DNA from: Thermoplasmata archaeon
Lineage (GTDB): Archaea; Thermoplasmatota; Thermoplasmata; RBG-16-68-12; JAFNFQ01
Length of the DNA: 24,000 nucleotides
Direction: 5' to 3'
Assembly: GCA_041489255.1 (NCBI GenBank)
Contig: JBGPQV010000003.1
Span: 53,448 to 77,447, forward strand
The first letter of the stretch is position 1; each line of letters starts with the position of its first letter. This document shows positions 5,357 through 18,313 of the stretch, piece by piece. A program made the translations under genes and the position numbers. The notes below the pieces were generated by a model that saw only the letters and a program-made list of their open reading frames with translations, made no database searches and was not told the DNA's origin.

Positions 5357-8300
5357 TTATATCTGCTGTCGCCAGTCGTTCAATGCTTTAATCCAGGCCC
5401 ATACATTCTCACCTTGCACAGGGAAGAATGAGATTATCGAACCATCTGAAGCCCTAACGACGATGGTTACCTCATCAATACCATACATGTGAGGCTTATA
5501 GGTGTAGATAAGATTGCCTGAATTGGTATCGAGCTTGATGTCTCCCAACGGGGTATTTCTTAGACCGTCCCTGAGCAACTCCCAGACTTGTGCGTCGGTC
5601 ATTGCCGGAGGGAGCGTCTTTTCGATTGGATATCCAGTGATGGTCTTGCCCGTCGGGAAGAAGGATGTAATATCCTTATCCAAGCTGACTATGCTGCCTT
5701 CAATGTGGCGGCCAATGACATGGAACTGACCAAACCGCCCGTCTCCCATTTTGAGGACCGCGATGCCGTCGGGCAATCCGCTGGCCTTCCATGCTTTCAA
5801 CACTTCATCAGCGCCAGCACCTTCGTCGAGCGGGTTAGCACCGTTCTTCCTAACCCACGCTCCGAACCTTTCGAGGGCCCCAGGTTCGAGTTCGATTACA
5901 TCTTTTGTCACAGACCTCCAGACACCCTCTCGAATAGCTCTATCCGGAAAGGCGGCTTCGAAACCGATTACTTCAGCCTCTGGAAGTCTCAACAACGCCT
6001 TTGTCCTTCCGCGAAGGATGTCGTCTGATATGCCGAGGACATCCGCACTCCACTTGGTCATCAGCACCAAGCCCGCCAGCCCGATTCCGTTCGCGAACAT
6101 CTCCTCGAAGAAGCCTCCGAACAGCTCTGCAAGTGCGTAGCTGCCAGCGAAGATGGCACCCGCAAGGGCGAGTTTCACTGTGCATCGGCCGAAGTATTCA
6201 TAAGCCCTAGCTGCGAAACTGATGATTCTTTGGAGGGGACCGAGCTTGGAAAGTGCTTGAGTAATCATTGCCCCAATGTTTCCAGCTTCGAGGGCTCCTT
6301 TGACAGCGGCTCCCGCACCCGCCGTCACAATCATTCCGATTATATTTCCGATCCAATACCAGTAATTGAATGTCTCGTGATCATTGCTCATGTCCCAGGG
6401 ATCGTTGTCGCCGTCGGGAACCGGGTCGTAGGGATTGGCGTTTTCTGCTTGTTGAACTAAAGCGTCGTAGAGAGACCCAAGAGCGTTTCGCAATGTATCA
6501 CCGGGATTCCCGCTATTGAGCAGGTCATGCCCGAACGATGCGCCAGAATCGAACAGCGAACCTGCATTTTTCATAATGGACGGTATGCTCGTGAACATCC
6601 CCGAGAAACAATCCCACAAGCCGACTGCCATCCCTCCAACCTCTGGACCAAGATACTTGACCGTCAGGTCTTTCAGAAGGTCCCGAGCTCTGTCAAAATA
6701 TGTGTCTTGCTTGAGCCAGTAATGGTTTGCATTGCCGTTGACGTCCACCACATAGAAATCGACGGTCTTGCCCGTGAATGCATCCAAGAAGCCGATGCTG
6801 AAGTCCTTATTGCGAGTGTCGAAGATATTCGCATAGAGATCGTCGTTGGAATACTCCTTTCCATCAACGACAGTTATTAAGGACCCTAGCCCCACGTTGT
6901 CGGACATGACGATGGTGACGTGGACACACTTCAGCCCTTCCCAGCAAAGTGAGGTGGACCAAGACAAATCAATGTAAGGAACGACCAATTCCACTACGCT
7001 GGGTTCGTCATCTATGTCATCTTTCATCCTATCTCCATCGCTGTCCTGCTTTCTTGGGTCAACTTTCTGTAAGAACTCCATCAGATCATTTAGCCCGTCT
7101 CCGTCCGTGTCTTTCTTGTCCGGATCGGAAGTCACGTGGTAGCGAGTAAAGAGTGGCCTTATGGCCTCCGACACCATGTTCTGGGCGTGGACTGGAAGGG
7201 ATGTATCGTCGAGTATGCGGGTCATCTCGTAGACGTTCGCGACGGAGGTGAGCATGACCGTGTCCCATCCTAGGATCTCTATTCCGTCGAGCAGAAGGTC
7301 CCCGTCGCAATCAGGATTCAGCGGGTTAGTCACCCATCCATAAACACCAGTGACTTCTTCGCCATCTTTGAGTCCGTCGCCATCCGTGTCGGGTTCCAAC
7401 GGATTCGTCCCGTATCCACCGCCAGGATTCGGCTCCCCCAGGTAGCCCACCTCACCTAACTCTTCACCAGAATCCCAGACTTGGTTGCGCAAGGTGTCGT
7501 GCCAGCCATCCCAGAGTCCGTCCCCATCCGTATCAGAGAGCACGGGACTTGTGCGGTAGTTCCGTTCCCCCATCAGCTCGCCAGAATCCCATATTTGATT
7601 GGGAGTCCCCTGATTGTCATTCCAGCCGTCCCAGAGTCCGTCCCCATCAGAGTCTGGATCGCATGCGTTTATGAGGCTATCACCATCAGTGTCAACCCAC
7701 CAGTCTATTTCCGAACCATCTAAGATTCCATCTCCGTCACTGTCAGGATTTGTTGAGGAAAGGCACGAGTAGGCAGGTAAGCCCTCGATTCCGTCGCTCA
7801 GTCCATCGGAATCGGAATCCAGCAGATCTTCCGGCGTGTAATCTCTGCCGCCTAGAATCACGAGAATCGATTCGAGCAATAGATCGCCCTTGGTGCTCGA
7901 GTGGAACCGAATCGGTATGAATTGATAACCGTCCACATCCGGGTAGCTCGCCAGCAATGCGTTGATAGCGTCGGTATCCAAAAGCACAATCAGGTGGTCA
8001 GTCCATGGAAATGGGATGCCTGCATCAGGGCTGACATATCCCTCTTGCTTCCACTCAGGATTGTCATCCCCCTCTGATGTCACGATATTGATGGAGACAT
8101 CATGCGGATAATCTACGCAAAACATCTGATATACCAAAGAGCCCGAATCGGTAGTCCAATCAATCGATTCGAAGAAATTAACATCGTAGAGCAAAGCATG
8201 GTTTGCCCAAATTCGCGCGTCGTCGCTCGCGGCCCAATAGAATTCCCCGTTGAACATCCTTAGTATCATCCAGTATGTGGTTTCCGCTTCTAGCAGTACT

Positions 8301-11300
8301 GGGGAATCGAATCGAAACTCAAGCCAACCGTAGAGGGCGCCGGATACTTCGACTGAAGAAACGGCATAATCGCTTGCCAGAGGTCCAATTTCGCCGGTGG
8401 AGAGATCCCATGAGGCCGCCTCACCCAAGACGAGGTCGATCCATGCGGTTTCGCCAGTCGGAATGGCGTAGGCGACTGCGACTTTGACCGTAATTAGAGA
8501 TTGAGGCCCATCGCTGGAGGAAATGTAGAATGGGACGCCCGCCGCGTATCCGGCCCATCCGTCATCAGGAACATGCAGCCCCGGGAATGTTGGGTTGGAG
8601 TCATGAGAACCTGACCATTTGTGGGGCTGGAATGTCAGGACCACCCGCGGAGCATCCCAACCCATCACTGGTTTGACTTGTTCAAGAACCCCTTTCTTGA
8701 CGGGGACTTTCAGATAGAGCTCGGTGTCTCCGCCGGTGTCTCCGCCAGCATCCTCAAAGAGCGTCCATGTATACCAATACGTCCCCACCTCCGGAGTTGC
8801 GCATTGGCCTGCATCATTGGTGCTACAAAGCCACTTGGGCCATTCCTCATACGCAGCGGCGCCGAACTCGGTGCCGTCTTTCGCCCCATCTGCATCGAAA
8901 TCGCGCTGGAAGCTGTCAGCCATGGCGAAATCGCCTAGGGCGCCAGAAAGAGACCAGACGTAGTCATACGCGGTATTCCTCCAAGTCTCCTCACCGATGT
9001 ACTTATGTTTCATCGGAACCCATTCGCCTGCGTCCCCATTCCCATCCCAATGATACATCAAGAGTCCATCCTCGCCCACTGGATTCCCTAAGTTGTCGAC
9101 TGGACCCTCTGGATAACTGATTTTGACCACAGCGCGGTAGCCTTGAGCTGACGAGGTCTCCACGTGAATCACCTGCCCTACGAGCCCTGCATCAGTGAAT
9201 GTCTGAGAACCTTCGGTAATGGTGACCGTTGCGCCAGGGTCAGGCATACCAAAATCGAGGGCCACACTCACTCCAAGGTCTCTGTTGACTGCAATCACAT
9301 CAGGCTCGAAGTCGGACGGGAGCAGGATTCCGAGCGTTGGGTTTGCGGCAGCGTCTGGGTCGATGTCGTATTCTAGGTTGCGAACGTCAAGGCCATCAGG
9401 TATCAAGTCGTAATCTGTGTCAGCGTCTGCGGGGTTGGTGTTCTGAAGATATTCCTGTAGGTTCGTGAGAGTGTCCCCATCCTTATATTCGGAAGAGTCA
9501 TCATAGGTCGGCAATAGTCCGTATTTCACTTCCCAACCATCCGGCATCCCGTCAGGCTCTGTGTCCGCCTGTATAGGATTGGTGTCAGTCTGGATTTGCT
9601 CCACTGAATCGGTTAGCCCATCATTATCGCTGTCAGGTATGTTCGGATTGGTCTCAGCGGTTCCCTCCAGCCCCGTCCATGAGCCAGTATCTACGCGGCC
9701 GTCGATGTCACGATCTTCGAATTCCCCCTGTTCGATTCCATCGCTGTCAGTGTCAATCCACCCGTCGGGCAAACCATCTGAATCGCTATCCACATTCAAC
9801 GGATTCGTTACCGTAGTTGGGTCCTCATCCGGGACGAATCCTGATGGTGCTCCCAAGGTCTGCGAGTCCCCGTCATTCTGCCAATCCGCAAGAGAATCGT
9901 AGCCTTGAGGCCAAGGGAGCCCTGCTTCCTGTCCGTCTGTCAGGTGATCACCATCTGTGTCGCGCATACTTGGATTCGTTTCGATGTTGTCGACACAACC
10001 ATCGCGGTCTACATCCTCAGTGCCGTCCCATAAACCGTCGTCATCTGTATCTCTATCCAGAGGATTCGTGGTTGTGCTTGAATCGGAATCTCTCTTGGGG
10101 ATGCCAAATATGTCTCTGTCCAGTGTGTCGCCAACCTCCGGCAACCCAAGCTCAAGTCCATCAGGAAGCCCGTCACCATCCGTATCCGCAATCGAAGGGT
10201 CGGTTTCCTCTGCATCGATGTTGCCGTCAAGGTTCTTGTCCTCGCTCTCCCATCTGTCAATCAGTCCATTCCCTTCCGTTCCCTGGGGATTCGTTGCGGG
10301 ATCGTAGTCATCATGGTCAGGGTCAGGATTGCCGATCAGGTCATATCCGGGTTCCTGCCAGCTGAAAAGACAGCCTGACGCCCCCAAGCCACAATCCACC
10401 CATCCATCTGGCAGCCCATCCTTGTCTGTGTCTATGCTTGTGGGATTAGTCGTCACGGAGTCTGGGACATCATATCCTGGTACACCGGTCTCCACTCCAT
10501 CCCCCAATCCATCATCGTCCGTGTCGGCATCCAGAGGATTCGTTAGATAGGTATCACTACCTCGAACGGCTTCCTCGCCGTCCTTCACGCCGTCATCGTC
10601 TGAGTCATCATCCAGGGGGTTCGTTTCGCCTGGACCATCTCCATCATTCCATACGCCCGCATCTGTTGCGCCATTCAGGTTTCGGTCTTCGAACTCTCCT
10701 GAATTCCGCGTCTGATCGTCATTGAAGTCAATCCACCCATCGGGTAGCCCATCATTGTCCGTGTCCCAGCGGAGCGGGTCAGTGACCGTGCCTGGGTCCG
10801 AGTCGATTCCAAGAAGACCGACCTCCAGTCCGTCGGGCAATCCATCCCCGTCTGTATCTGCTTGAGATGGATTCGTCTCTCCTGGCCCAGAACCGGGGCC
10901 GCTTCCGGCATCCCATGCCCCGGTATCCACCACACCGTCGAGGTCACGATCCTCGTATTCACCGACATCGCGCAGGCCATTGCTGTTTAGGTCAAACCAG
11001 CCATCGGGAAGTCCGTCTCCATCCGTGTCTATAATAGTCGGGTTCGTGGTCGTTAATGGATCGGAGTCAGGGCCATAACTAACGCCATCGACAATGCCGT
11101 AACCCCACGGAGGGGATAGCGTGTCTGAGGCGCGCATCGGGGAGTCGTCGGTGAGCCCCACCTCCAACCCATCCGAGAGATGGTCGCCGTCCATGTCTGG
11201 ATTGAGCGGATCTGTGATGAATGTATCCTCGCCTGCGAATAGTTCTTCCCAGTCTGTCAAGCCGTCGTTGTCGGTATCATCGCTCGTCGGATTGGTTCCA

Positions 11301-13960
11301 TATAGTTCGACTTCGGCATAATCGAGCAGCAGGTCCCCGTCGGTATCGGGATTGTTCTTATTCAAACCATTCGCGTCCTCCCATTCGTCCCTCAGTTGGT
11401 CACCGTCTGAGTCCAGTTCGATAACGACTATGGCAGTGTCATCGCCAAAGGACCCAGAAGCGTCCGTTGCCGTGAGAGAGACCGTGTATGTCCCAGATAC
11501 TGTGAATGTATGAACGGTATTCGGCATCATTTCGTGAGGGCTGCCGTCGCCGAAGTCCCAGACGAAAGTGAGCGGTTCACCATCATCATCTTCCGCCTCA
11601 GCAGAGAATATTATGGGCGCAGCGGCGCCATGGATTCTCCGATCAGGACCTGCGAACGCAGTTGGCGGAGTGTTCGCGACTCTAATAAGGTGAGTATCAT
11701 AGGACACAAGCCCGTGCTTGTCCGTCACACGGAGGGTAGCCGAGTACTCGCCCCGAGAAGAATACCGATGCATTGTGCGCGAGCCCGAGCCCGTCGAAGA
11801 GTCGCCGAAGAACCAAAGATAGGAGAGGTCGGACAAGTCGTCCTGGCCGTCGGAGGAATGGATGCCGCTGAGTACCGATGCATGCGTCTCTGCTCCTAGG
11901 GAGAGGACCTCAAAGGCGGCATTCGGAGCAACGTTAGAGACCGTAACGCTATGGGTCTTGGTGCTCATGACCCCGTTGTCGTCAGTGACTGTTAGAATCA
12001 CGCCATAGCTTCCTTCCCGCCTGTAGGAATGGGTAGGCGAGACGCCTGAGGCCTTAGCTCCGTCTCCGAACTGCCAATAGTAGTCCAGAGCCGTGCGATC
12101 TGAAGCTGTGTCGGTCGAAAGGGAACCGTCATAGTACACCATCGTGTCCTCATCTACTTGGGAGGGTGTGAATGCGAAGTCAGCGTTCGGCGCCCCATTC
12201 GTCACACTGACACGTCTGCTGTTAGCGCCCCAGTCCCCCTTCCCGTCTGTGACCTTCAGCACTACGGTGTACGTTCCGGCGCGCAAGTACGCATGAGTGG
12301 TCGAGGCGGTGCTCGTGGTGGCCGTCACGCCGTCGCCAAGATCCCAAAAGAAAGATGGAGCCGGCGAGGAGGGCCCGTCGCTGTCCGCGTATATGCCCGT
12401 GAAGGTGAATGTCTGGTCCTCGGCTTTTGTCGCCGCGTTCACGTTGACGGCCGTAATCTCGGGAGCCTTGTTGTCCAGCACCCCGCCCTTGAACGTGCAC
12501 GTGGCAGTGTTCGTGCCCCCATCCCCATCGTCGGCCTTCAGGGTGACGGTGTATGTCGTCTTGGAGGAGGGGAATTTATGCGTCACGTTCCACCACACAC
12601 GGTAGGGGGAAACGTGGCTTGGGTTTGCGAACGTCTGGACAGCGTCAGCGCTCCCGTCCCCGAAGTGCCACGTTAAGGTGAGGGCGTCGGCGCCGACCTC
12701 ATGGGCAATCCCTTTGAGGACGGACGATGTCGCCCCGACGATTGATGCGTACGGCGCGCGGTTCTGCACGGTGACGGTCACGCTGGAAGTGGTAGAAGCC
12801 GAATGAGGATCGGTGACCGCGAGGTTCACCGTCGCGGATGTCTCATCGTACCATACATACGTTGGCCTGCTCCCTGTCATCGATGCACTACCACTCCACG
12901 AATAAGCCAAGGCGTCGGCATCGCTCGACGTATCGGTGGACGCGGTGGCATCGAAGAGCACTGTCTGTGCTTCCGAAACGGTGATTGAATTGCCTGCTGT
13001 TGCCGTCGGCGCTCCGTTGGCGACGTTCACCACATGCTGCGTGGTTGACGTGGCGTCGTTGTCGTCGCGGACGGTAAGCAGAACAGCGAAGTTGCCCGGA
13101 GATGAATACGCATGGGTGATGGTCCTACCTTGGCCATACTGCCCGTCTCCGAAATCCCATGCGAATGTCAGCGGGTGCCTAGTGATGGCGTTGCCCGGCA
13201 AGGCGTTGTCAGTTGCGGTGTCTGTTGAACCCGAGGCGTCGAACGTCACTACAGCATCCATGTATGGACTCGTAGGAGAATAGACGAAAGAGGCAGACGG
13301 ATTGGCATTCACAATGACCACGTTCCGAGTCGCCGTGTCGGCGTTCCCGGCTGCGTCTCGCACGATCAGGTGCACGCGATAGGTTCCTGCGTATCCATAG
13401 GAATGCGTCTCAATGCCTGCAGTGCTCGTTGCCCCGTCACCAAAATCCCATTCGTATCGGAGATCCTCTCGCGGGTATGTGGCCGGCCACGAGGTCGTGG
13501 CATCAAACTGAATGCTCTCGTCCTCCGCCACGCTTGCGGTGTCAGCCGGAGTCGTGAGGATGACTGCCCCGGGAACTCCCCCTGATCCGTAGCTCGGACT
13601 CTTGATGTGGATGCGGATTGTGTCCAGAGCCATCGTCCCAGTCGACTCTTCGGCAACCAAAGCCACGTCGTAAATCCCGTCCGTTGTGAACGAGTGTACA
13701 GGTGAAGGATCCGTCGAAGAGGTGCCGTCTCCGAAAAACCATGTGAAAGATAAGGCATTTCCGGGTTGCCCGGGGCTTGACCCACTTGAGTCAAACTCGA
13801 TGTCTTCTCCCGGATCTGCCGGGTCTGACTCTTCGGTTCCGTCGAGCGCATCCGCCACGGCGACAGGCGGCGGATAGCTCGCCTTGACAAGAGTTGTGGC
13901 GCCTGAGATCACGGTTATAAAGGCCAAAGCCAAAGCCATTAGACTTCTCATCCCGATCAT
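5357..13960 (-). CDS. Giant secreted polymorphic-toxin-like protein (about 2867 aa from ATG 13960)
   Basis: ATG at 13958..13960 is preceded by GAGGAGGA and followed by the signal-like MIGMRSLMALALAFITVISGATTLVKA. A PKD block (approx 11422..13860) has nine W-x-F-G-D-G-type cores. TSP3-like acidic Ca-binding repeats (DTDGDGLPDG, DTDNDGLTDWEE and similar) occupy approx 9385..11421 and 7010..7830. An unassigned module lies at approx 7831..9384. A hydrophobic Gly/Ala-rich segment lies at approx 6050..6640. A distinct C-terminal domain of about 230 aa lies at 5360..6049. The coordinates include the stop codon. Confidence 0.85.
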   Translation of the reverse strand: MIGMRSLMALALAFITVISGATTLVKASYPPPVAVADALDGTEESDPADPGEDIEFDSSGSSPGQPGNALSFTWFFGDGTSSTDPSPVHSFTTDGIYDVALVAEESTGTMALDTIRIHIKSPSYGSGGVPGAVILTTPADTASVAEDESIQFDATTSWPATYPREDLRYEWDFGDGATSTAGIETHSYGYAGTYRVHLIVRDAAGNADTATRNVVIVNANPSASFVYSPTSPYMDAVVTFDASGSTDTATDNALPGNAITRHPLTFAWDFGDGQYGQGRTITHAYSSPGNFAVLLTVRDDNDATSTTQHVVNVANGAPTATAGNSITVSEAQTVLFDATASTDTSSDADALAYSWSGSASMTGSRPTYVWYDETSATVNLAVTDPHSASTTSSVTVTVQNRAPYASIVGATSSVLKGIAHEVGADALTLTWHFGDGSADAVQTFANPSHVSPYRVWWNVTHKFPSSKTTYTVTLKADDGDGGTNTATCTFKGGVLDNKAPEITAVNVNAATKAEDQTFTFTGIYADSDGPSSPAPSFFWDLGDGVTATTSTASTTHAYLRAGTYTVVLKVTDGKGDWGANSRRVSVTNGAPNADFAFTPSQVDEDTMVYYDGSLSTDTASDRTALDYYWQFGDGAKASGVSPTHSYRREGSYGVILTVTDDNGVMSTKTHSVTVSNVAPNAAFEVLSLGAETHASVLSGIHSSDGQDDLSDLSYLWFFGDSSTGSGSRTMHRYSSRGEYSATLRVTDKHGLVSYDTHLIRVANTPPTAFAGPDRRIHGAAAPIIFSAEAEDDDGEPLTFVWDFGDGSPHEMMPNTVHTFTVSGTYTVSLTATDASGSFGDDTAIVVIELDSDGDQLRDEWEDANGLNKNNPDTDGDLLLDYAEVELYGTNPTSDDTDNDGLTDWEELFAGEDTFITDPLNPDMDGDHLSDGLEVGLTDDSPMRASDTLSPPWGYGIVDGVSYGPDSDPLTTTNPTIIDTDGDGLPDGWFDLNSNGLRDVGEYEDRDLDGVVDTGAWDAGSGPGSGPGETNPSQADTDGDGLPDGLEVGLLGIDSDPGTVTDPLRWDTDNDGLPDGWIDFNDDQTRNSGEFEDRNLNGATDAGVWNDGDGPGETNPLDDDSDDDGVKDGEEAVRGSDTYLTNPLDADTDDDGLGDGVETGVPGYDVPDSVTTNPTSIDTDKDGLPDGWVDCGLGASGCLFSWQEPGYDLIGNPDPDHDDYDPATNPQGTEGNGLIDRWESEDKNLDGNIDAEETDPSIADTDGDGLPDGLELGLPEVGDTLDRDIFGIPKRDSDSSTTTNPLDRDTDDDGLWDGTEDVDRDGCVDNIETNPSMRDTDGDHLTDGQEAGLPWPQGYDSLADWQNDGDSQTLGAPSGFVPDEDPTTVTNPLNVDSDSDGLPDGWIDTDSDGIEQGEFEDRDIDGRVDTGSWTGLEGTAETNPNIPDSDNDGLTDSVEQIQTDTNPIQADTEPDGMPDGWEVKYGLLPTYDDSSEYKDGDTLTNLQEYLQNTNPADADTDYDLIPDGLDVRNLEYDIDPDAAANPTLGILLPSDFEPDVIAVNRDLGVSVALDFGMPDPGATVTITEGSQTFTDAGLVGQVIHVETSSAQGYRAVVKISYPEGPVDNLGNPVGEDGLLMYHWDGNGDAGEWVPMKHKYIGEETWRNTAYDYVWSLSGALGDFAMADSFQRDFDADGAKDGTEFGAAAYEEWPKWLCSTNDAGQCATPEVGTYWYTWTLFEDAGGDTGGDTELYLKVPVKKGVLEQVKPVMGWDAPRVVLTFQPHKWSGSHDSNPTFPGLHVPDDGWAGYAAGVPFYISSSDGPQSLITVKVAVAYAIPTGETAWIDLVLGEAASWDLSTGEIGPLASDYAVSSVEVSGALYGWLEFRFDSPVLLEAETTYWMILRMFNGEFYWAASDDARIWANHALLYDVNFFESIDWTTDSGSLVYQMFCVDYPHDVSINIVTSEGDDNPEWKQEGYVSPDAGIPFPWTDHLIVLLDTDAINALLASYPDVDGYQFIPIRFHSSTKGDLLLESILVILGGRDYTPEDLLDSDSDGLSDGIEGLPAYSCLSSTNPDSDGDGILDGSEIDWWVDTDGDSLINACDPDSDGDGLWDGWNDNQGTPNQIWDSGELMGERNYRTSPVLSDTDGDGLWDGWHDTLRNQVWDSGEELGEVGYLGEPNPGGGYGTNPLEPDTDGDGLKDGEEVTGVYGWVTNPLNPDCDGDLLLDGIEILGWDTVMLTSVANVYEMTRILDDTSLPVHAQNMVSEAIRPLFTRYHVTSDPDKKDTDGDGLNDLMEFLQKVDPRKQDSDGDRMKDDIDDEPSVVELVVPYIDLSWSTSLCWEGLKCVHVTIVMSDNVGLGSLITVVDGKEYSNDDLYANIFDTRNKDFSIGFLDAFTGKTVDFYVVDVNGNANHYWLKQDTYFDRARDLLKDLTVKYLGPEVGGMAVGLWDCFSGMFTSIPSIMKNAGSLFDSGASFGHDLLNSGNPGDTLRNALGSLYDALVQQAENANPYDPVPDGDNDPWDMSNDHETFNYWYWIGNIIGMIVTAGAGAAVKGALEAGNIGAMITQALSKLGPLQRIISFAARAYEYFGRCTVKLALAGAIFAGSYALAELFGGFFEEMFANGIGLAGLVLMTKWSADVLGISDDILRGRTKALLRLPEAEVIGFEAAFPDRAIREGVWRSVTKDVIELEPGALERFGAWVRKNGANPLDEGAGADEVLKAWKASGLPDGIAVLKMGDGRFGQFHVIGRHIEGSIVSLDKDITSFFPTGKTITGYPIEKTLPPAMTDAQVWELLRDGLRNTPLGDIKLDTNSGNLIYTYKPHMYGIDEVTIVVRASDGSIISFFPVQGENVWAWIKALNDWRQQI

Positions 13961-14032
13961 CAATGTATCCTCCTCACGTCCCAACAATCCGCTCAATCCA
14001 ATTGAATGGGACGCACGGGGATAACCATCTAG

Positions 14033-14041
14033 CCTTAAATG
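14033..14041 (-). promoter_or_regulatory. TATA-like box candidate for the giant toxin gene
   Basis: The minus strand reads CTAAACATTTAAGG, about 75-80 nt upstream of ATG 13960 and only a few bp from the IS target-site duplication. Motif resemblance is the only evidence. Confidence 0.25.
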
Positions 14042-14045
14042 TTTA

Positions 14046-14053
14046 GTCTCCCG
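14046..14053. repeat. Target-site duplication GTCTCCCG (left copy)
   Basis: The identical 8-mer directly abuts both IS ends (14046..14053 and 15102..15109). Confidence 0.85.
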
Positions 14054-14071
14054 AACTGTGTTGAACAAATC
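14054..14071. repeat. IS terminal inverted repeat (left)
   Basis: AACTGTGTTGAACAAATC. It matches the reverse complement of 15084..15101 at 17/18 positions. Confidence 0.85.
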
Positions 14072-14109
14072 CCGTCTTTTTCTCCCTCCGACCTCCCGAC
14101 CTCCCGCCA

Positions 14110-15033
14110 TCAGGGCATCTGCAGGAGCATCGCGTAGACAGCGAACTTCGCCATGACCTCCCTGTACATCAGGTCGAGCCTCCTCGCCATCACGTTCTCC
14201 CCGAATATCCTCTTCTCGCCGGAGAAGGTCCACTCAGCCGCCCACCTCATCCCATACCCGTGTTTCTCCCTCCAGCCATCGTACCCGAGGGACCTGAGCT
14301 CCCTCACCGCCCTCGGCCTGGCCGATGAGCCCAACGATTTGCAGGTCGCACCAGCCTTGATCCTGATCCCCGCCCCGATTCCTTTGTCCTCCAGGAGCTG
14401 GAAGTTCGCGCGGCTGTCGTAGGCGGCGTCGGCGAGGACCTCCCGTATGCGCCCCTTCCCCAGGGCCCTCTCCGCCTTCTCCAGCAGGGCGGGGAACATC
14501 GTCGTGTCGCCTATCCCCTCGTCGGTAGCTTTCATCGCCACGGGCCCTCCGTCAACGTCCACCGCCAGGTGCACCTTTATCCAGCCCCGGTGGCGGTGCC
14601 ACTTCTCCCTCATCCACTCCCCCCTGTTCGTGACCTTGATTCCCGTGCTGTCGAAGGCGATCACGAACGGCCCGTCACCCTGAGGCGCGGGAATCTCAAG
14701 CTCCATGTCGGCTATCCGCCACCAGAGGGTCGTGTAGTCGGCAGGCCTGACCTTCCCCACGAACTTCGACATGCCGCAGAGGAAGCCCTCCATCTGCCTG
14801 TACTGCATCCTGAGGATCTGCCTGACGGCGGCGAGGAATCGCATCATGCTCTCGGGGAAGCCGTATGGACGCCCCCTCTTCCCGCCGTTCATCGTCCTCA
14901 GTTCGTCTTCCCACGAGTCCAGCCAGTCCATGCTGAGGTACAGCTCCCCCCGCCGGACGAGCCGCTCGTTGTACCCGGGCCAATTCCTCTTATCCTTGTA
15001 GTGCCTTTCACCCTCGCTCGGCATGGGTCCCAT
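14110..15033 (-). CDS. DDE transposase (IS4/IS5 superfamily)
   Basis: The N-terminal RNWPGYNERLVRRGEL motif is typical of IS5-like transposases. Acidic triad candidates lie in VIAFDSTGIKV and LADAAYDS, with the signature Y-x2-R-x3-E-x6-K in YGMRWAAEWTFSGEK. The start of the longest ORF at 15045 is TTG. ATG codons at 15033 and 15024 are more likely starts. Confidence 0.85.
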   Translation of the reverse strand: MGPMPSEGERHYKDKRNWPGYNERLVRRGELYLSMDWLDSWEDELRTMNGGKRGRPYGFPESMMRFLAAVRQILRMQYRQMEGFLCGMSKFVGKVRPADYTTLWWRIADMELEIPAPQGDGPFVIAFDSTGIKVTNRGEWMREKWHRHRGWIKVHLAVDVDGGPVAMKATDEGIGDTTMFPALLEKAERALGKGRIREVLADAAYDSRANFQLLEDKGIGAGIRIKAGATCKSLGSSARPRAVRELRSLGYDGWREKHGYGMRWAAEWTFSGEKRIFGENVMARRLDLMYREVMAKFAVYAMLLQMP

Positions 15034-15083
15034 CCCTGCTGACAAGGCAGGTTCTCATGCCGAGTTCCCACCATCAAACCATC

Positions 15084-15446: not shown

Positions 15447-15869
15447 ATGCCCCCCGAGGAAGAGCGAGAAGGCGAGATGGAGGAACCTCAGGAGCTGGCC
15501 CAAGAACAGGCCCCGGAAGTCCCCGTGGCCCCGCCAAAGCCCGAGTTGCGCATCGTCGACTTCTCGACAAAGAAGATCAATCCGTTCTGCACCGTCTGCG
15601 GTCTCGAGAAGGACAAGTACATGGAGGTCGAGGTCAAGGGAGTGATCGAGTACACATGCAGGGACTGCTACCGCAGGTCGAGGGGCGCGCCCGCCATGCC
15701 TCCGGCGGCGACCTGCAGGAAGTGCGGAACGCCGATGCAGGTGGGCGACAACTTCTGCGGGAAGTGCGGCAACCCCGCGGTGCTCAAGTGCACAGCCTGC
15801 AACAATGAGGTGGAGGAAGAGGACAGGTTCTGCGCGAAGTGCGGGGCGAAGCTATCCTTCGCGGACTAG
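15447..15869 (+). CDS. Triple zinc-ribbon protein with acidic N-terminus (140 aa)
   Basis: ATG at 15447. Three CxxC...CxxC pairs are present: CTVC...CRDC, CRKC...CGKC and CTAC...CAKC, in a double-zinc-ribbon style. The N-terminus MPPEEEREGEMEEPQELAQEQ is Glu-rich. Confidence 0.7.
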   Translation: MPPEEEREGEMEEPQELAQEQAPEVPVAPPKPELRIVDFSTKKINPFCTVCGLEKDKYMEVEVKGVIEYTCRDCYRRSRGAPAMPPAATCRKCGTPMQVGDNFCGKCGNPAVLKCTACNNEVEEEDRFCAKCGAKLSFAD

Positions 15870-16793
15870 CACCGCAGATCCCCTGGGCAGCTTGAATATC
15901 TTCCTTGGCAGCGGGCTCGTCTCGTGCACGCGGAAGCTGCCGAGGTTCGCCTCGAAGCTCTTGACGCCGTCGAGCGAGGTGCTCCCGCCGCCGAGGCTGT
16001 TCCACAGTAGGAACACCACATCGTCCAGTATCTCGTTCTTCACGGCGGTGCGCAGCTCCTCCGCGTTCCCGCCGCGGACGAAGACTATCGGCTCCAGGAT
16101 CATCTCCAGCTCTATCATGGCGGTTGAGCCGGTCTTCGTGATGACCAGGGAGTTCGATTCCGCCCCGCCCTGGAGCGCGGGCACCTCGATCGTGTTCGTG
16201 TCCTTCTTGACCCTGAGGCCATCGCCCCGCAGGTCCCTCTCGACGAGCGCGAGCATCTCCTGCTCCAGGTAGCCGGGCACGAAGTCGACTCTGGGCAGGG
16301 TCGTCTCCCGCCTCAGGCTGAAAGCGAGCGGGCAGCGGTAGGACTTCATCTCCTCCTTGTAGGATATCGATTCGACGATCTCCGGCTTCACCGGTTGCGC
16401 GCCGTCCCTGAGCACGAAGAACTCCGTGTCCGTCCCGTCCGTCACCACGCTCAGGTAGTTCTCGTGGCGGGAGGCTCTGGACTTGAGGGTGCTGTCGTCA
16501 GTCGCGCTGTGGAACACCGCGTGATCTGTCTCGTCCCTGAAGGGATGGCTGTGGAAGATGCCGACGATGCCCACGTTCCTGGGGTACTGCATCGCCAGCT
16601 CGACCTCCTCCCTCGCGTCCGCATGCGCGCCGTATCTGCTCTGCGACTTGTACCTGGTGCAGGGGACCGAGTCGCAGACCCAGACCTCGCTCCTCCCGAA
16701 GAAGCCGAGGAGCCAGCCGATCGTCTCGACGCCTCTCGACCGCGCGACCTCGTTCACGTGGATGTTGATCTTTCGCAGCGCGCTCCGCTGCAT
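15852..16793 (-). CDS. JAMM/MPN+ metallopeptidase with an uncharacterised C-terminal domain (313 aa from ATG 16793)
   Basis: JAMM signature: the Glu in VETIGWLLGF, then GIFHSHPFRDETDHAVFHSATD (H-x-H...S-x-x-D, codons approx 16497..16553). ATG at 16791..16793 lies 14 nt after the E1 stop. A GTG overlapping the E1 stop (GTGA) is an alternative start. The last ~200 aa match no family I recognise. Confidence 0.8.
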   Translation of the reverse strand: MQRSALRKINIHVNEVARSRGVETIGWLLGFFGRSEVWVCDSVPCTRYKSQSRYGAHADAREEVELAMQYPRNVGIVGIFHSHPFRDETDHAVFHSATDDSTLKSRASRHENYLSVVTDGTDTEFFVLRDGAQPVKPEIVESISYKEEMKSYRCPLAFSLRRETTLPRVDFVPGYLEQEMLALVERDLRGDGLRVKKDTNTIEVPALQGGAESNSLVITKTGSTAMIELEMILEPIVFVRGGNAEELRTAVKNEILDDVVFLLWNSLGGGSTSLDGVKSFEANLGSFRVHETSPLPRKIFKLPRGSAVLVREG

Positions 16794-16807: not shown

Positions 16808-17563
16808 TCACTTCGCACCACCGCAGACCGGGCACTTGGGGTCCCGCTTCCAGTTGTACCTCTGCATCTTCCCCTCCAGGCCATAATAGAGGATGTAAGG
16901 CGCGACTTTGCCGAAGCCAAGGAGGTACTTCAGCGCTTCCTGACACTGCAGGCTCGCGATGATGCCCATGGTTGTGGGAAGCGAAGTGAAGTGGCATGCG
17001 CCGTCTCCGGATTTCTTCAGGTCCGTTGTGCTGTCATCCTTCAAGGCGGGTTTGTTGCAGCGGTAACAGGGCGTCTTGCCGGGGATGATCGAATGCACGG
17101 AGCCGTTGATTCCGTCAAGGGAGGCTCCGCCGTCGATGAGGGGGACCTTCAGCCTCACGCACAGGGAATTAAGGAACAAGCGGACGTGGAACGAGTCGAC
17201 GCATCCGAGGACGAGGTCGGACTCCCTCGCCTCCTTCAGGAGGGCGTCGTAACCCTTGCCGTCGGTGACGTCGTTGGGATAGGTGAGAAGCTCAACGTCG
17301 GAGTTCGCCGCGAGGAGGTACTCCCTGAGCGCGTCCACCTTGAACATGCCTACCTGGTGAGTCCTGTAGATCAGCCTGTTCAGGTTCGCTTCCTCGAGCT
17401 TGTCGAAGTCGAATATCGTCAGGCGCCCGATGCCGCAGCGCGTCATGATCTCCGCGCAGGTCGCGCCGAGGCCGCCGACGCCGACGACGGTCACCTTCTT
17501 CTCCTTCAGCTTCGAGAAGTCCGCGAACGGGAAGATCTTGAGGCGGGCGTATCGCTCAGTCAA
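16808..17563 (-). CDS. UBA5-like E1 (ThiF/MoeB-type adenylation domain, 251 aa)
   Basis: VTVVGVGGLGATCAEIMTRCGIGRLTIFDFDKLEEANLNRL compares with human UBA5 [41 protein letters not shown] (recalled from memory). GACHFTSLPTTMGIIA compares with GVCAASLPTTMGVVA, placing the catalytic Cys candidate at Cys190 (codon 16994..16996). Zn-site pairs are CYRC and CPVC. The start is TTG at 17561..17563, preceded by GAGGGGGAAGGG. Confidence 0.9.
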   Translation of the reverse strand: MTERYARLKIFPFADFSKLKEKKVTVVGVGGLGATCAEIMTRCGIGRLTIFDFDKLEEANLNRLIYRTHQVGMFKVDALREYLLAANSDVELLTYPNDVTDGKGYDALLKEARESDLVLGCVDSFHVRLFLNSLCVRLKVPLIDGGASLDGINGSVHSIIPGKTPCYRCNKPALKDDSTTDLKKSGDGACHFTSLPTTMGIIASLQCQEALKYLLGFGKVAPYILYYGLEGKMQRYNWKRDPKCPVCGGAK

Positions 17564-18026
17564 GCCATCCCTTCCCCCTCATGTCCTTGACCACGCTCTG
17601 CACCCAGTAAGAGACTTCCCTCTTCAGGTAGAGCGCGATGCTGCAGTAGTCGTCCCACCAGTAGTTCTGTTCCATGTGCATGTCGCAGAGCCTCAGCCCG
17701 AGCACGCCATCGTCCACCTTGCGGTCGGTGTAGTTCATCAGCTCGGGAATGCGGCAGGCGGGAGGCGTCTGCGGGTAGGCGTCCTTCAGGACGAGCTCTA
17801 TGTCCCAGGAGTGCGGGCCGTCGAAGACCGTGCCGGTCCAACTAGTCGCCTTGTCCCCCGTCGGGCTGAGGCTGAACCATTTCCCGCCTTCTAGAAACCT
17901 CAGGTACTCCTCGAACCTCCTGAGGGCGTACCTCTCCTCCTTCGCCCTCACGCGCCAGGTTTCGTCCCGCGGCGAAGCTACGGTCGCGCACTGGAGGAAG
18001 TAGAAGAGGTCGTCTTCCTTGGCCAT
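17556..18026 (-). CDS. UFC1-like E2 (UBC fold, 156 aa)
   Basis: Four blocks are colinear with human UFC1 (recalled from memory). SPRDETWRVRAKEERYAL matches GPRDRELWVQRLKEEYQSL. WFSLSPTGDKATSWTG matches WFRLESNKEGTRWFG. WDIELVLKDAYPQTPPACRIPEL matches [29 protein letters not shown] matches KICLTDH, giving a Cys114 candidate (codon 17685..17687). There is no HPN tripeptide before the Cys, as in UFC1. ATG at 18024..18026. Confidence 0.85.
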   Translation of the reverse strand: MAKEDDLFYFLQCATVASPRDETWRVRAKEERYALRRFEEYLRFLEGGKWFSLSPTGDKATSWTGTVFDGPHSWDIELVLKDAYPQTPPACRIPELMNYTDRKVDDGVLGLRLCDMHMEQNYWWDDYCSIALYLKREVSYWVQSVVKDMRGKGWLD

Positions 18027-18029
18027 GCC

Positions 18030-18275
18030 TCACCCGACGATCGAGGGGTCTATCACGTGGATGTTGGTGCTCCTCTCCGCGATCTCCTTCACCGTGCCGC
18101 CTGGGATCGGCGAGCCGCCGGGGAAGGTCGCGCTGAGCACCGTCGCGTCCTTGTTCTGCCTCTTCGCGGCTAGGACGAAGGCTTCCTGGAAGAGCATGTC
18201 GTCGGGGACCTTGAGGGTGACCACGGGCTTCTCGGCTTCACTTATGAAGATAAAACGCAGGACGACTTGGGGCAT
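18030..18275 (-). CDS. UFM1-like ubiquitin-fold modifier ending in Val-Gly (81 aa)
   Basis: VVTLKVPDDMLFQEAFVLAAKRQNKDATVLSATFPGGSPIPGGTVKEIAERSTNIHVIDPSIVG-stop is colinear with human UFM1 [65 protein letters not shown] (recalled from memory). ATG at 18273..18275 is preceded by AGGTG. Only 3 nt separate its stop from the E2 ATG. Confidence 0.8.
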   Translation of the reverse strand: MPQVVLRFIFISEAEKPVVTLKVPDDMLFQEAFVLAAKRQNKDATVLSATFPGGSPIPGGTVKEIAERSTNIHVIDPSIVG

Positions 18276-18305: not shown

Positions 18306-18313
18306 ATATTAAG
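18306..18313 (-). promoter_or_regulatory. TATA-like box candidate (CTTAATAT) for the Ubl-E2-E1-JAMM operon
   Basis: It lies in the 56-nt gap between the upstream surface-protein gene stop (18332) and the Ubl ATG (18275), 31-38 nt upstream of the ATG. Motif resemblance is the only evidence. Confidence 0.3.

Follow-up and report, generated by a model that had tools for sequence, protein, structure and literature searches.

Organization of the locus

The window, by which is meant here the whole stretch of 24,000 nucleotides of Thermoplasmata archaeon DNA that was analyzed, carries on its minus strand a tightly packed operon of four genes in the order Ubl-E2-E1-JAMM, with the gene for the small modifier first. 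That gene (18030..18275, minus strand) encodes an 81-residue, UFM1-like protein and is recognized by its translation, an AlphaFold2 fold, Foldseek comparison and clusters of homologues. It is present as one copy in the window genome (2.74 Mb in 41 contigs, 96.5% complete), and its N-terminus, MPQVV, agrees with the MAQVT-type starts of its homologues. On inspection of the sequence, a TTAATAT element was seen 31-37 nucleotides 5' of the Ubl ATG (18306..18312, minus strand), a candidate that is possibly an archaeal TATA box.

After a gap of 3 nucleotides the modifier stop is followed by the ATG, at position 18026, of a gene for a 156-residue UFC1-type E2 (17556..18026, minus strand). The next gene (16808..17563, minus strand) encodes a UBA5-type E1 of 251 residues that comprises the adenylation domain only; its start codon is a TTG that overlaps the E2 stop. 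The last of the four is the gene for a JAMM/MPN+ peptidase, which has 313 residues when read from the Met at 16793 (15852..16793, minus strand). A longer open reading frame for the peptidase, beginning at 16997, was rejected, because it would overlap the E1 gene by 190 nucleotides and the homologous proteins begin where Met 16793 lies.

A plus-strand gene for a multi-zinc-ribbon protein of 140 residues (15447..15869), identified by tblastn conservation and by the Pfam DZR model on its relatives, converges on the JAMM gene and overlaps the 3' end of the latter. Just beyond the zinc-ribbon gene is an intact DDE transposase gene of an insertion sequence (14110-15045, minus strand), which sits between the operon and an open reading frame of 2958 amino acids (5357-14233).

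Relationship of the modifier to UFM1

The AlphaFold2 model of the modifier, made with an alignment of 64 homologues, has a pLDDT of 93 and a pTM of 0.83. When it was compared with the PDB by Foldseek, the best 12 matches were all UFM1 chains (TM 0.78-0.85, rmsd 1.4-1.9 Å, about 20% identity), and SUMO and ubiquitin came behind UFM1 at TM 0.65-0.70.

Searches by sequence were also carried out. The 81-residue window modifier has no match in Pfam (to E <= 10), NCBIfam or PADLOC, and none among PDB sequences at E <= 10. A profile built from the family has T. brucei Ufm1 as its sole match in the PDB, at E 1.2, and the Pfam Ufm1 model (PF03671) matches 9 of 64 family members, weakly, with a best E of 0.0069. 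At locus L027 the encoded relative can be aligned with UFM1 of human and mouse, from residue 6 through to the final residue and with VGSC included, at E 0.01, and UFM1 accounts for 12 of its 13 matches. When the family profile was run against 1.8 billion representative proteins, it recovered six full-length clusters, all belonging to the family itself, plus fragments; at E <= 0.001, UFM1 of eukaryotes or of Asgard archaea was not among the matches. Partial matches to the modifier profile, in multiple stretches, were seen in giant proteins of 700-3700 residues (P0078, P0079 and P0081-P0083; E 7e-11 to 5e-4); these may reflect compositional noise or a similar small domain that is repeated.

By curated sequence criteria, then, the modifier stands outside the UFM1 family, and since the window modifier has no Pfam or PDB sequence match and the family profile meets UFM1 in the PDB at E 1.2 and not at E <= 0.001 among the 1.8 billion representatives, homology to UFM1 rests mainly on the predicted fold and the gene context. 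On those two grounds a UFM1-like modifier is well supported. The label "Ufm1-like", which the original prediction had given to the gene, is backed by the predicted fold together with linkage to a UFC1-type E2 and a UBA5-type E1.

The E2 and E1 partners

The E2 scores 36.3 bits against the Pfam UFC1 model, whose cut-off is 25, and matches UFC1 structures in the PDB at 2.5e-6 to 5e-5. Its presumed catalytic residue, Cys114 (codon 17687..17685), lies in the motif LRLCDMHME and is invariant within LR[LI]CDMHME across the loci.

Among PDB entries the E1 is closest to UBA5 (167 bits, as against 110 for MoeB), and the protein also matches MoeB/ThiF models at scores below their cut-offs. Its sequence includes a GVGGLG loop, a zinc site made up of two CxxC pairs (CYRC and CPVC) that are conserved across loci, and a cysteine, Cys190 (codon 16996..16994), that is kept in every locus covering the region, which is to say all except the truncated L012. 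Cys190 aligns with the Cys of the ...GVCA-ASLPTTMG... segment of UBA5, which we take to be the catalytic C250. According to the Bub preprint, C250 of UBA5 is located close to where the crossover loop ends.

The C-terminal end of the modifier and of its relatives

The window modifier ends in ...HVIDPSIVG. Its last codons (18030..18038, minus strand) read GTC GGG TGA and specify Val80, Gly81 (18035..18033) and the stop (18032..18030). Translation of the minus-strand open reading frame, 18275..18030, thus confirms what had been proposed for this gene, namely that the stop comes directly after ...DPSIVG and that the protein requires no C-terminal processing. It had further been argued that a lone Gly preceded by Val separates this protein from tags ending in Gly-Gly. 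This distinction holds as well, and the alignment of the L027 relative fixes the Val-Gly of the family, at the level of sequence, onto V82-G83 of human UFM1. Read-through of TAG (Pyl) is irrelevant to the window modifier, whose stop is TGA; it could matter for relatives L008 and L019.

V80 and G81 are invariant across 61 aligned homologues (54-98% identity; alignment A3), and conservation collapses just past the Gly wherever the modifier carries a tail. Because of this invariance, and of the drop in conservation that comes right after the Gly in the tailed proteins, the Val-Gly-stop of the window modifier is judged from these alignments to be more than chance.

The stop itself behaves differently from the two residues before it. 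Homologues of the modifier fall into 68 clusters (65-98% identity). Among the 61 protein clusters with the motif, the Gly is followed by the stop in 44, and in the other 17 the sequence runs on for 1-25 residues; one of the 17 looks frameshifted, which leaves 16-17 tailed clusters of about 60. The cluster tails include HP, RP, QP, R, Q, FQ, FR, SRPA, RGGEV, SPRPRP and SLPPSIL, and are mutually unrelated in sequence. A set of 29 loci from species genomes, picked without regard to tails, has 22 tail-less Ubl genes and 7 tailed ones (SLPPSIL, GLPALDSGALTV, FQ, SC, SR, FR and T). Assembly error was considered as a source of the tails and was ruled out, since independent MAGs and clusters with many members contain them repeatedly; several tailed clusters are made up of dozens of sequences, the largest of 83. 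The Ser-Cys tail is that of L027. It is the same dipeptide as in human pro-UFM1, and the alignment with human UFM1 extends through it; we read the identity as coincidence.

An alignment of homologues had been named in the original prediction as the means of learning whether a Val-Gly-stop terminus is conserved, and the outcome is divided: the terminal Gly is conserved, but variable extensions follow it in the minority of clusters and species loci counted above. From these sequences, Val-Gly itself is fixed, the stop that follows the Gly is liable to shift in evolution, and the ready-made end is the common state of the family and no fixed rule.

The tail state changes at least four times on a maximum-likelihood tree of concatenated E2 and E1 sequences (33 rows; unrooted). 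On this tree the clade L026-L030 is uniformly tailed; the window lineage and its 98%-identical relative L005 are both tail-less. Because the tree is unrooted, gain of a tail is indistinguishable from loss. There is also an association between the tail and the spacing of the Ubl and E2 genes. All 18 loci in which this junction measures 3-7 nucleotides are tail-less, and all 9 tailed loci have a spacer of 19-108 nucleotides, a long spacer being found in 5 tail-less loci as well; as the loci are related, the association is to be taken descriptively, not as a statistical test. It suggests that tight translational coupling holds the modifier stop in place, and that the stop may drift once the spacer opens.

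The JAMM peptidase

Assignment of the last operon gene to the JAMM/MPN+ peptidases is based on an invariant motif and the AlphaFold2 fold, with weak Pfam Prok-JAB/JAB scores that reach the cut-offs or fall slightly short of them. The motif is made up of Glu23 in E-x-x-G-W-L-x-G, His81-Ser-His83-Pro-Phe, and Phe-His-Ser96-x-x-Asp99, and is invariant in 28 complete or nearly complete sequences, those beside a tailed Ubl and those beside a tail-less one alike. In the model (pLDDT 84), the N-terminal MPN domain best matches the Caldiarchaeum Rpn11 homologue (CsRpn11), Rpn11, CSN5 and AMSH; each of these best fold matches cuts behind the C-terminus of a Ubl.

The C-terminal part of the protein, of ~170 residues (about 145-313; window 15852-16360), has no fold match in the PDB. 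It is confidently folded in the model (pLDDT about 80-93) and far less conserved than the catalytic domain. Several clades have an insertion of ~10 residues between HSHPF and FHSxxD (window about 16514-16553), which the window clade lacks and which occurs independently of the presence of a Ubl tail.

It had been proposed that the linked peptidase, having no precursor to process, acts as a deconjugase or regulator rather than as a maturase. For the window genome this stands. The active-site motif is intact in at least 20 tail-less lineages, so that something besides a propeptide would have to serve as the enzyme's substrate; in those lineages the simplest candidate activity is that it cleaves conjugates, and deconjugase is, from the sequences, the better reading of its role in the window genome. 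The proposal fails when carried over to the family, and "deconjugase rather than maturase" does not generalize, because the family includes true precursors in the form of the tailed modifiers. No other protease was found in the operons of the tailed relatives. UfSP2 is a maturase and a deconjugase in one, and by analogy with it and with CsRpn11, the JAMM, taken at the level of the family, most likely performs both functions. CsRpn11, the closest structural match, both matures precursors and deconjugates (PMC6043591).

One alternative is that the JAMM is primarily a maturase, that the ancestral modifier was tailed, and that tail-less genes are neutral, recent losses in which the peptidase is merely retained. 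Tails in 16-17 of about 60 clusters and throughout the clade L026-L030 are in keeping with such a history, as are the unrooted tree, which leaves the ancestral tail state undefined, and the processing of precursors by CsRpn11. We nevertheless regard it as unlikely: 22 of the 29 species loci are tail-less, the E..HSH..S..D residues of the JAMM are invariant in every tail-less locus whose contig reaches the JAMM gene, and purifying selection on an enzyme deprived of its substrate is not to be expected. Moreover, CsRpn11 and UfSP2 deconjugate too.

The L027 genome (CP070739.1, 3.2 Mb), whose modifier is tailed, has no JAMM gene of the operon type after the E1 or elsewhere, and has three generic JAMM open reading frames. 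Either JAMM-dependent maturation is not universal or that copy of the operon is decaying. At this locus (L027:3638-5313), some 100 nucleotides close to where the E1 ends are masked with N.

Distribution and neighborhood of the operon

The same gene order is found in about 30 species loci (31 species-representative genomes), in one complete chromosome of 1.99 Mb and in metagenome contigs. With this order kept, and with the E1 and E2 cysteines, the zinc sites and the JAMM motif conserved, the system looks functional. The genomes that bear the operon are all labelled as Thermoplasmata, Methanomassiliicoccales or Methanobacteriota MAGs. In a sample of 401 genomes from the class, 26 have a match to the UFC1 model, each scoring above the model's cut-off. 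These fall by family, with whole families positive (7/7, 6/6, 5/5 and 3/3) and large families wholly negative, and the inheritance of the operon looks, from this pattern, vertical rather than mobile.

Flanking genes vary between loci, with the exception of the zinc-ribbon gene. By tblastn, this gene was located in 20 distinct loci of relatives, divergent clades among them, in each case placed convergently as in the window. The zinc-ribbon protein may be a fifth component of the system, with adaptor, E3-like partner and target as candidate roles. UFL1 (PF09743) was not found in the window genome, and a search of that genome for UfSP (Peptidase_C78, PF07910), run with no positive control, gave no match.

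At L033 (2500-4483) an E2-E1-JAMM cluster occurs without an upstream modifier gene, the slot being filled by a low-complexity stretch rich in Lys, Arg and Glu and by an FtsJ-like methyltransferase gene on the opposite strand. At L003 (8582-9215) a MazE/PIN toxin-antitoxin pair is located between the JAMM gene and the zinc-ribbon gene.

A second alternative is that the operon is a mobile anti-virus defense module of the Bil/CBASS kind, whose parts merely resemble UFM1 components. The four types of part are those of Bil (Ubl, E2, E1 and JAB), the window operon adjoins both the insertion-sequence transposase and a polymorphic-toxin locus, and the E1 matches PADLOC E1-E2 models through its adenylation domain. 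Against these similarities, neither the Ubl nor the E2 is matched by a PADLOC model, and the PADLOC JAB match is weak (E 4e-4); the E2 is of UFC1 type, above the Pfam cut-off, and its occurrence in the 26 of 401 genomes, with several families wholly positive and others wholly negative, fits vertical inheritance. The Ubl is, in addition, at least 65% identical across the homologue clusters of the family, and the neighboring genes, the zinc-ribbon gene apart, differ from locus to locus. A defense module of this kind is, on balance, quite improbable.

Comparison with known conjugation systems

In Haloferax volcanii, SAMP1, SAMP2 and SAMP3 are archaeal tags with an encoded C-terminal Gly, which act with UbaA and are removed by the JAMM enzyme HvJAMM1. 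The SAMPs are ThiS/MoaD-type proteins with Gly-Gly ends that work without an E2 and also serve as sulfur carriers. The operon described here differs from the SAMP system in its dedicated UFC1-type E2 and in the UFM1-type fold of its modifier. The window genome also encodes, elsewhere, a stand-alone second JAMM and three ThiS/MoaD-type genes, and because these separate genes are present, the operon would constitute a further system, in addition to the SAMP-type parts that are usual in archaea. Ready-made ends are ordinary among Ubls (SAMP1/2, Urm1, Atg12, ThiS and MoaD), so that the increment provided by the Val-Gly end is a modest one.

That the small protein is not a protein tag but itself carries sulfur in the manner of ThiS/MoaD/Urm1/SAMP2, with a ThiF-type enzyme as its activator, is highly improbable, for although a mature C-terminal Gly is typical of such carriers and the E1 does match MoeB/ThiF models at scores below their cut-offs, an E2 with an invariant Cys and a JAMM isopeptidase play no part in sulfur transfer, the 251-residue E1 lacks a rhodanese domain, the modifier has no match to the ThiS Pfam model (PF02597) and ends in Val-Gly and not Gly-Gly, and the genome has its three separate ThiS/MoaD-type genes.

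With the eukaryotic UFM1 pathway, the operon shares a modifier whose beta-grasp fold, in the predicted model, is closest to UFM1, a single C-terminal Gly after Val, and E1 and E2 partners of UBA5 and UFC1 type. The differences are several. The stop in the window gene comes directly after the Gly, whereas human UFM1 is made with a Ser-Cys propeptide, which in human cells has to be cleaved off pro-UFM1 as an indispensable first step (PMC9638016). The linked protease is a JAMM metalloenzyme, with UfSP (C78) and UFL1 not detected in the searches of the window genome; the genes are joined in one operon; and the E1 is without the C-terminal tail of UBA5. The modifiers share about 20% sequence identity, and the Pfam Ufm1 model does not recognize the window protein.

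Other prokaryotic operons are built along comparable lines. The ubiquitin operon of Caldiarchaeum subterraneum (CsUb, E1, E2, RING and CsRpn11; PMC5654768, PMC6043591) is, like this one, an archaeal Ubl/E1/E2/JAMM operon, but CsUb is ubiquitin-type, ends in Gly-Gly, is processed from a precursor by CsRpn11 and is served by a RING E3, whereas the present modifier is UFM1-type and mostly ready-made. The bacterial Bil and Bub operons (PMC11601596, PMC11601603) likewise combine a Ubl, E1, E2 and JAB peptidase in one operon. Those systems are bacterial, Bil is anti-phage, the E2 types differ from the one described here, and the Bub E1 is cysteine-less and fused to the JAB domain; no PADLOC model matches the Ubl or E2 of the present operon. 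The Asgard Ufm1 homologues (Nat Microbiol 2026, PMC12962969) are prokaryotic UFM1-like proteins that were found by structure-based comparison; the present family differs in belonging to the Thermoplasmata.

A proposed UFM1-type conjugation pathway in Thermoplasmata

We consider it probable that the 81-residue protein is the modifier of a Thermoplasmata UFM1-type conjugation system, that it is translated in its active form, and that the JAMM in this lineage mainly reverses conjugation. What the analysis establishes is the sequence of the modifier, its conservation, the predicted fold, the linkage of the genes and the intactness of the catalytic motifs. In the pathway envisaged, the free carboxylate of Gly81 would be adenylated by the UBA5-like E1, presumably of the homodimer type, and the modifier would pass to Cys190 of the E1 as a thioester. 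It would then move on to Cys114 of the UFC1-like E2 and be attached to target lysines, a step in which the zinc-ribbon neighbor may assist. Cleavage of the conjugates after Gly81 by the JAMM would provide for reversal and for recycling of the modifier. Because there is no propeptide to remove in the window lineage, conjugate cleavage would be the main task of the enzyme there; in the tailed relatives the same JAMM most likely also matures the precursor.

A broader evolutionary reading can be put forward, which we hold to be doubtful though worth stating. The operon may represent a minimal, E3-independent relative of UFMylation in which the ready-made Val-Gly end and reversal by a JAMM are ancestral; the Ser-Cys-type propeptide and UfSP would then be later additions, and the tag/E1/E2 core would predate, or lie outside, the Asgard-eukaryote lineage.

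UFM1, UFC1 and UfSP2 were seen only in eukaryotes by Picchianti et al. (PMC10183829), and the tag has been placed in eukaryotes and Asgard archaea alone (PMC12962969). The eukaryote- or Asgard-only picture drawn by these surveys is contradicted by a conserved operon of Thermoplasmata that has all three core parts. In the literature outside subscription journals, nothing relevant was found on a UFM1- or UFC1-like system of Thermoplasmata or Methanomassiliicoccales. The combination encountered here is that of a UFM1-type tag encoded in mature form and paired with a JAMM; its interest is moderate, and the larger interest lies in the operon as a whole. A version of the pathway with four genes should be reconstitutable, and because the Val-Gly end is ready-made, the tag can be put to use as expressed, with no need for processing. 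The occurrence of tail-less and tailed modifiers beside one invariant peptidase constitutes, moreover, a natural experiment by which the roles of maturase and deconjugase can be told apart.

The last tryptic site of the window modifier is Arg68, after which digestion leaves a C-terminal peptide of 13 residues, STNIHVIDPSIVG; human UFM1 leaves Val-Gly.
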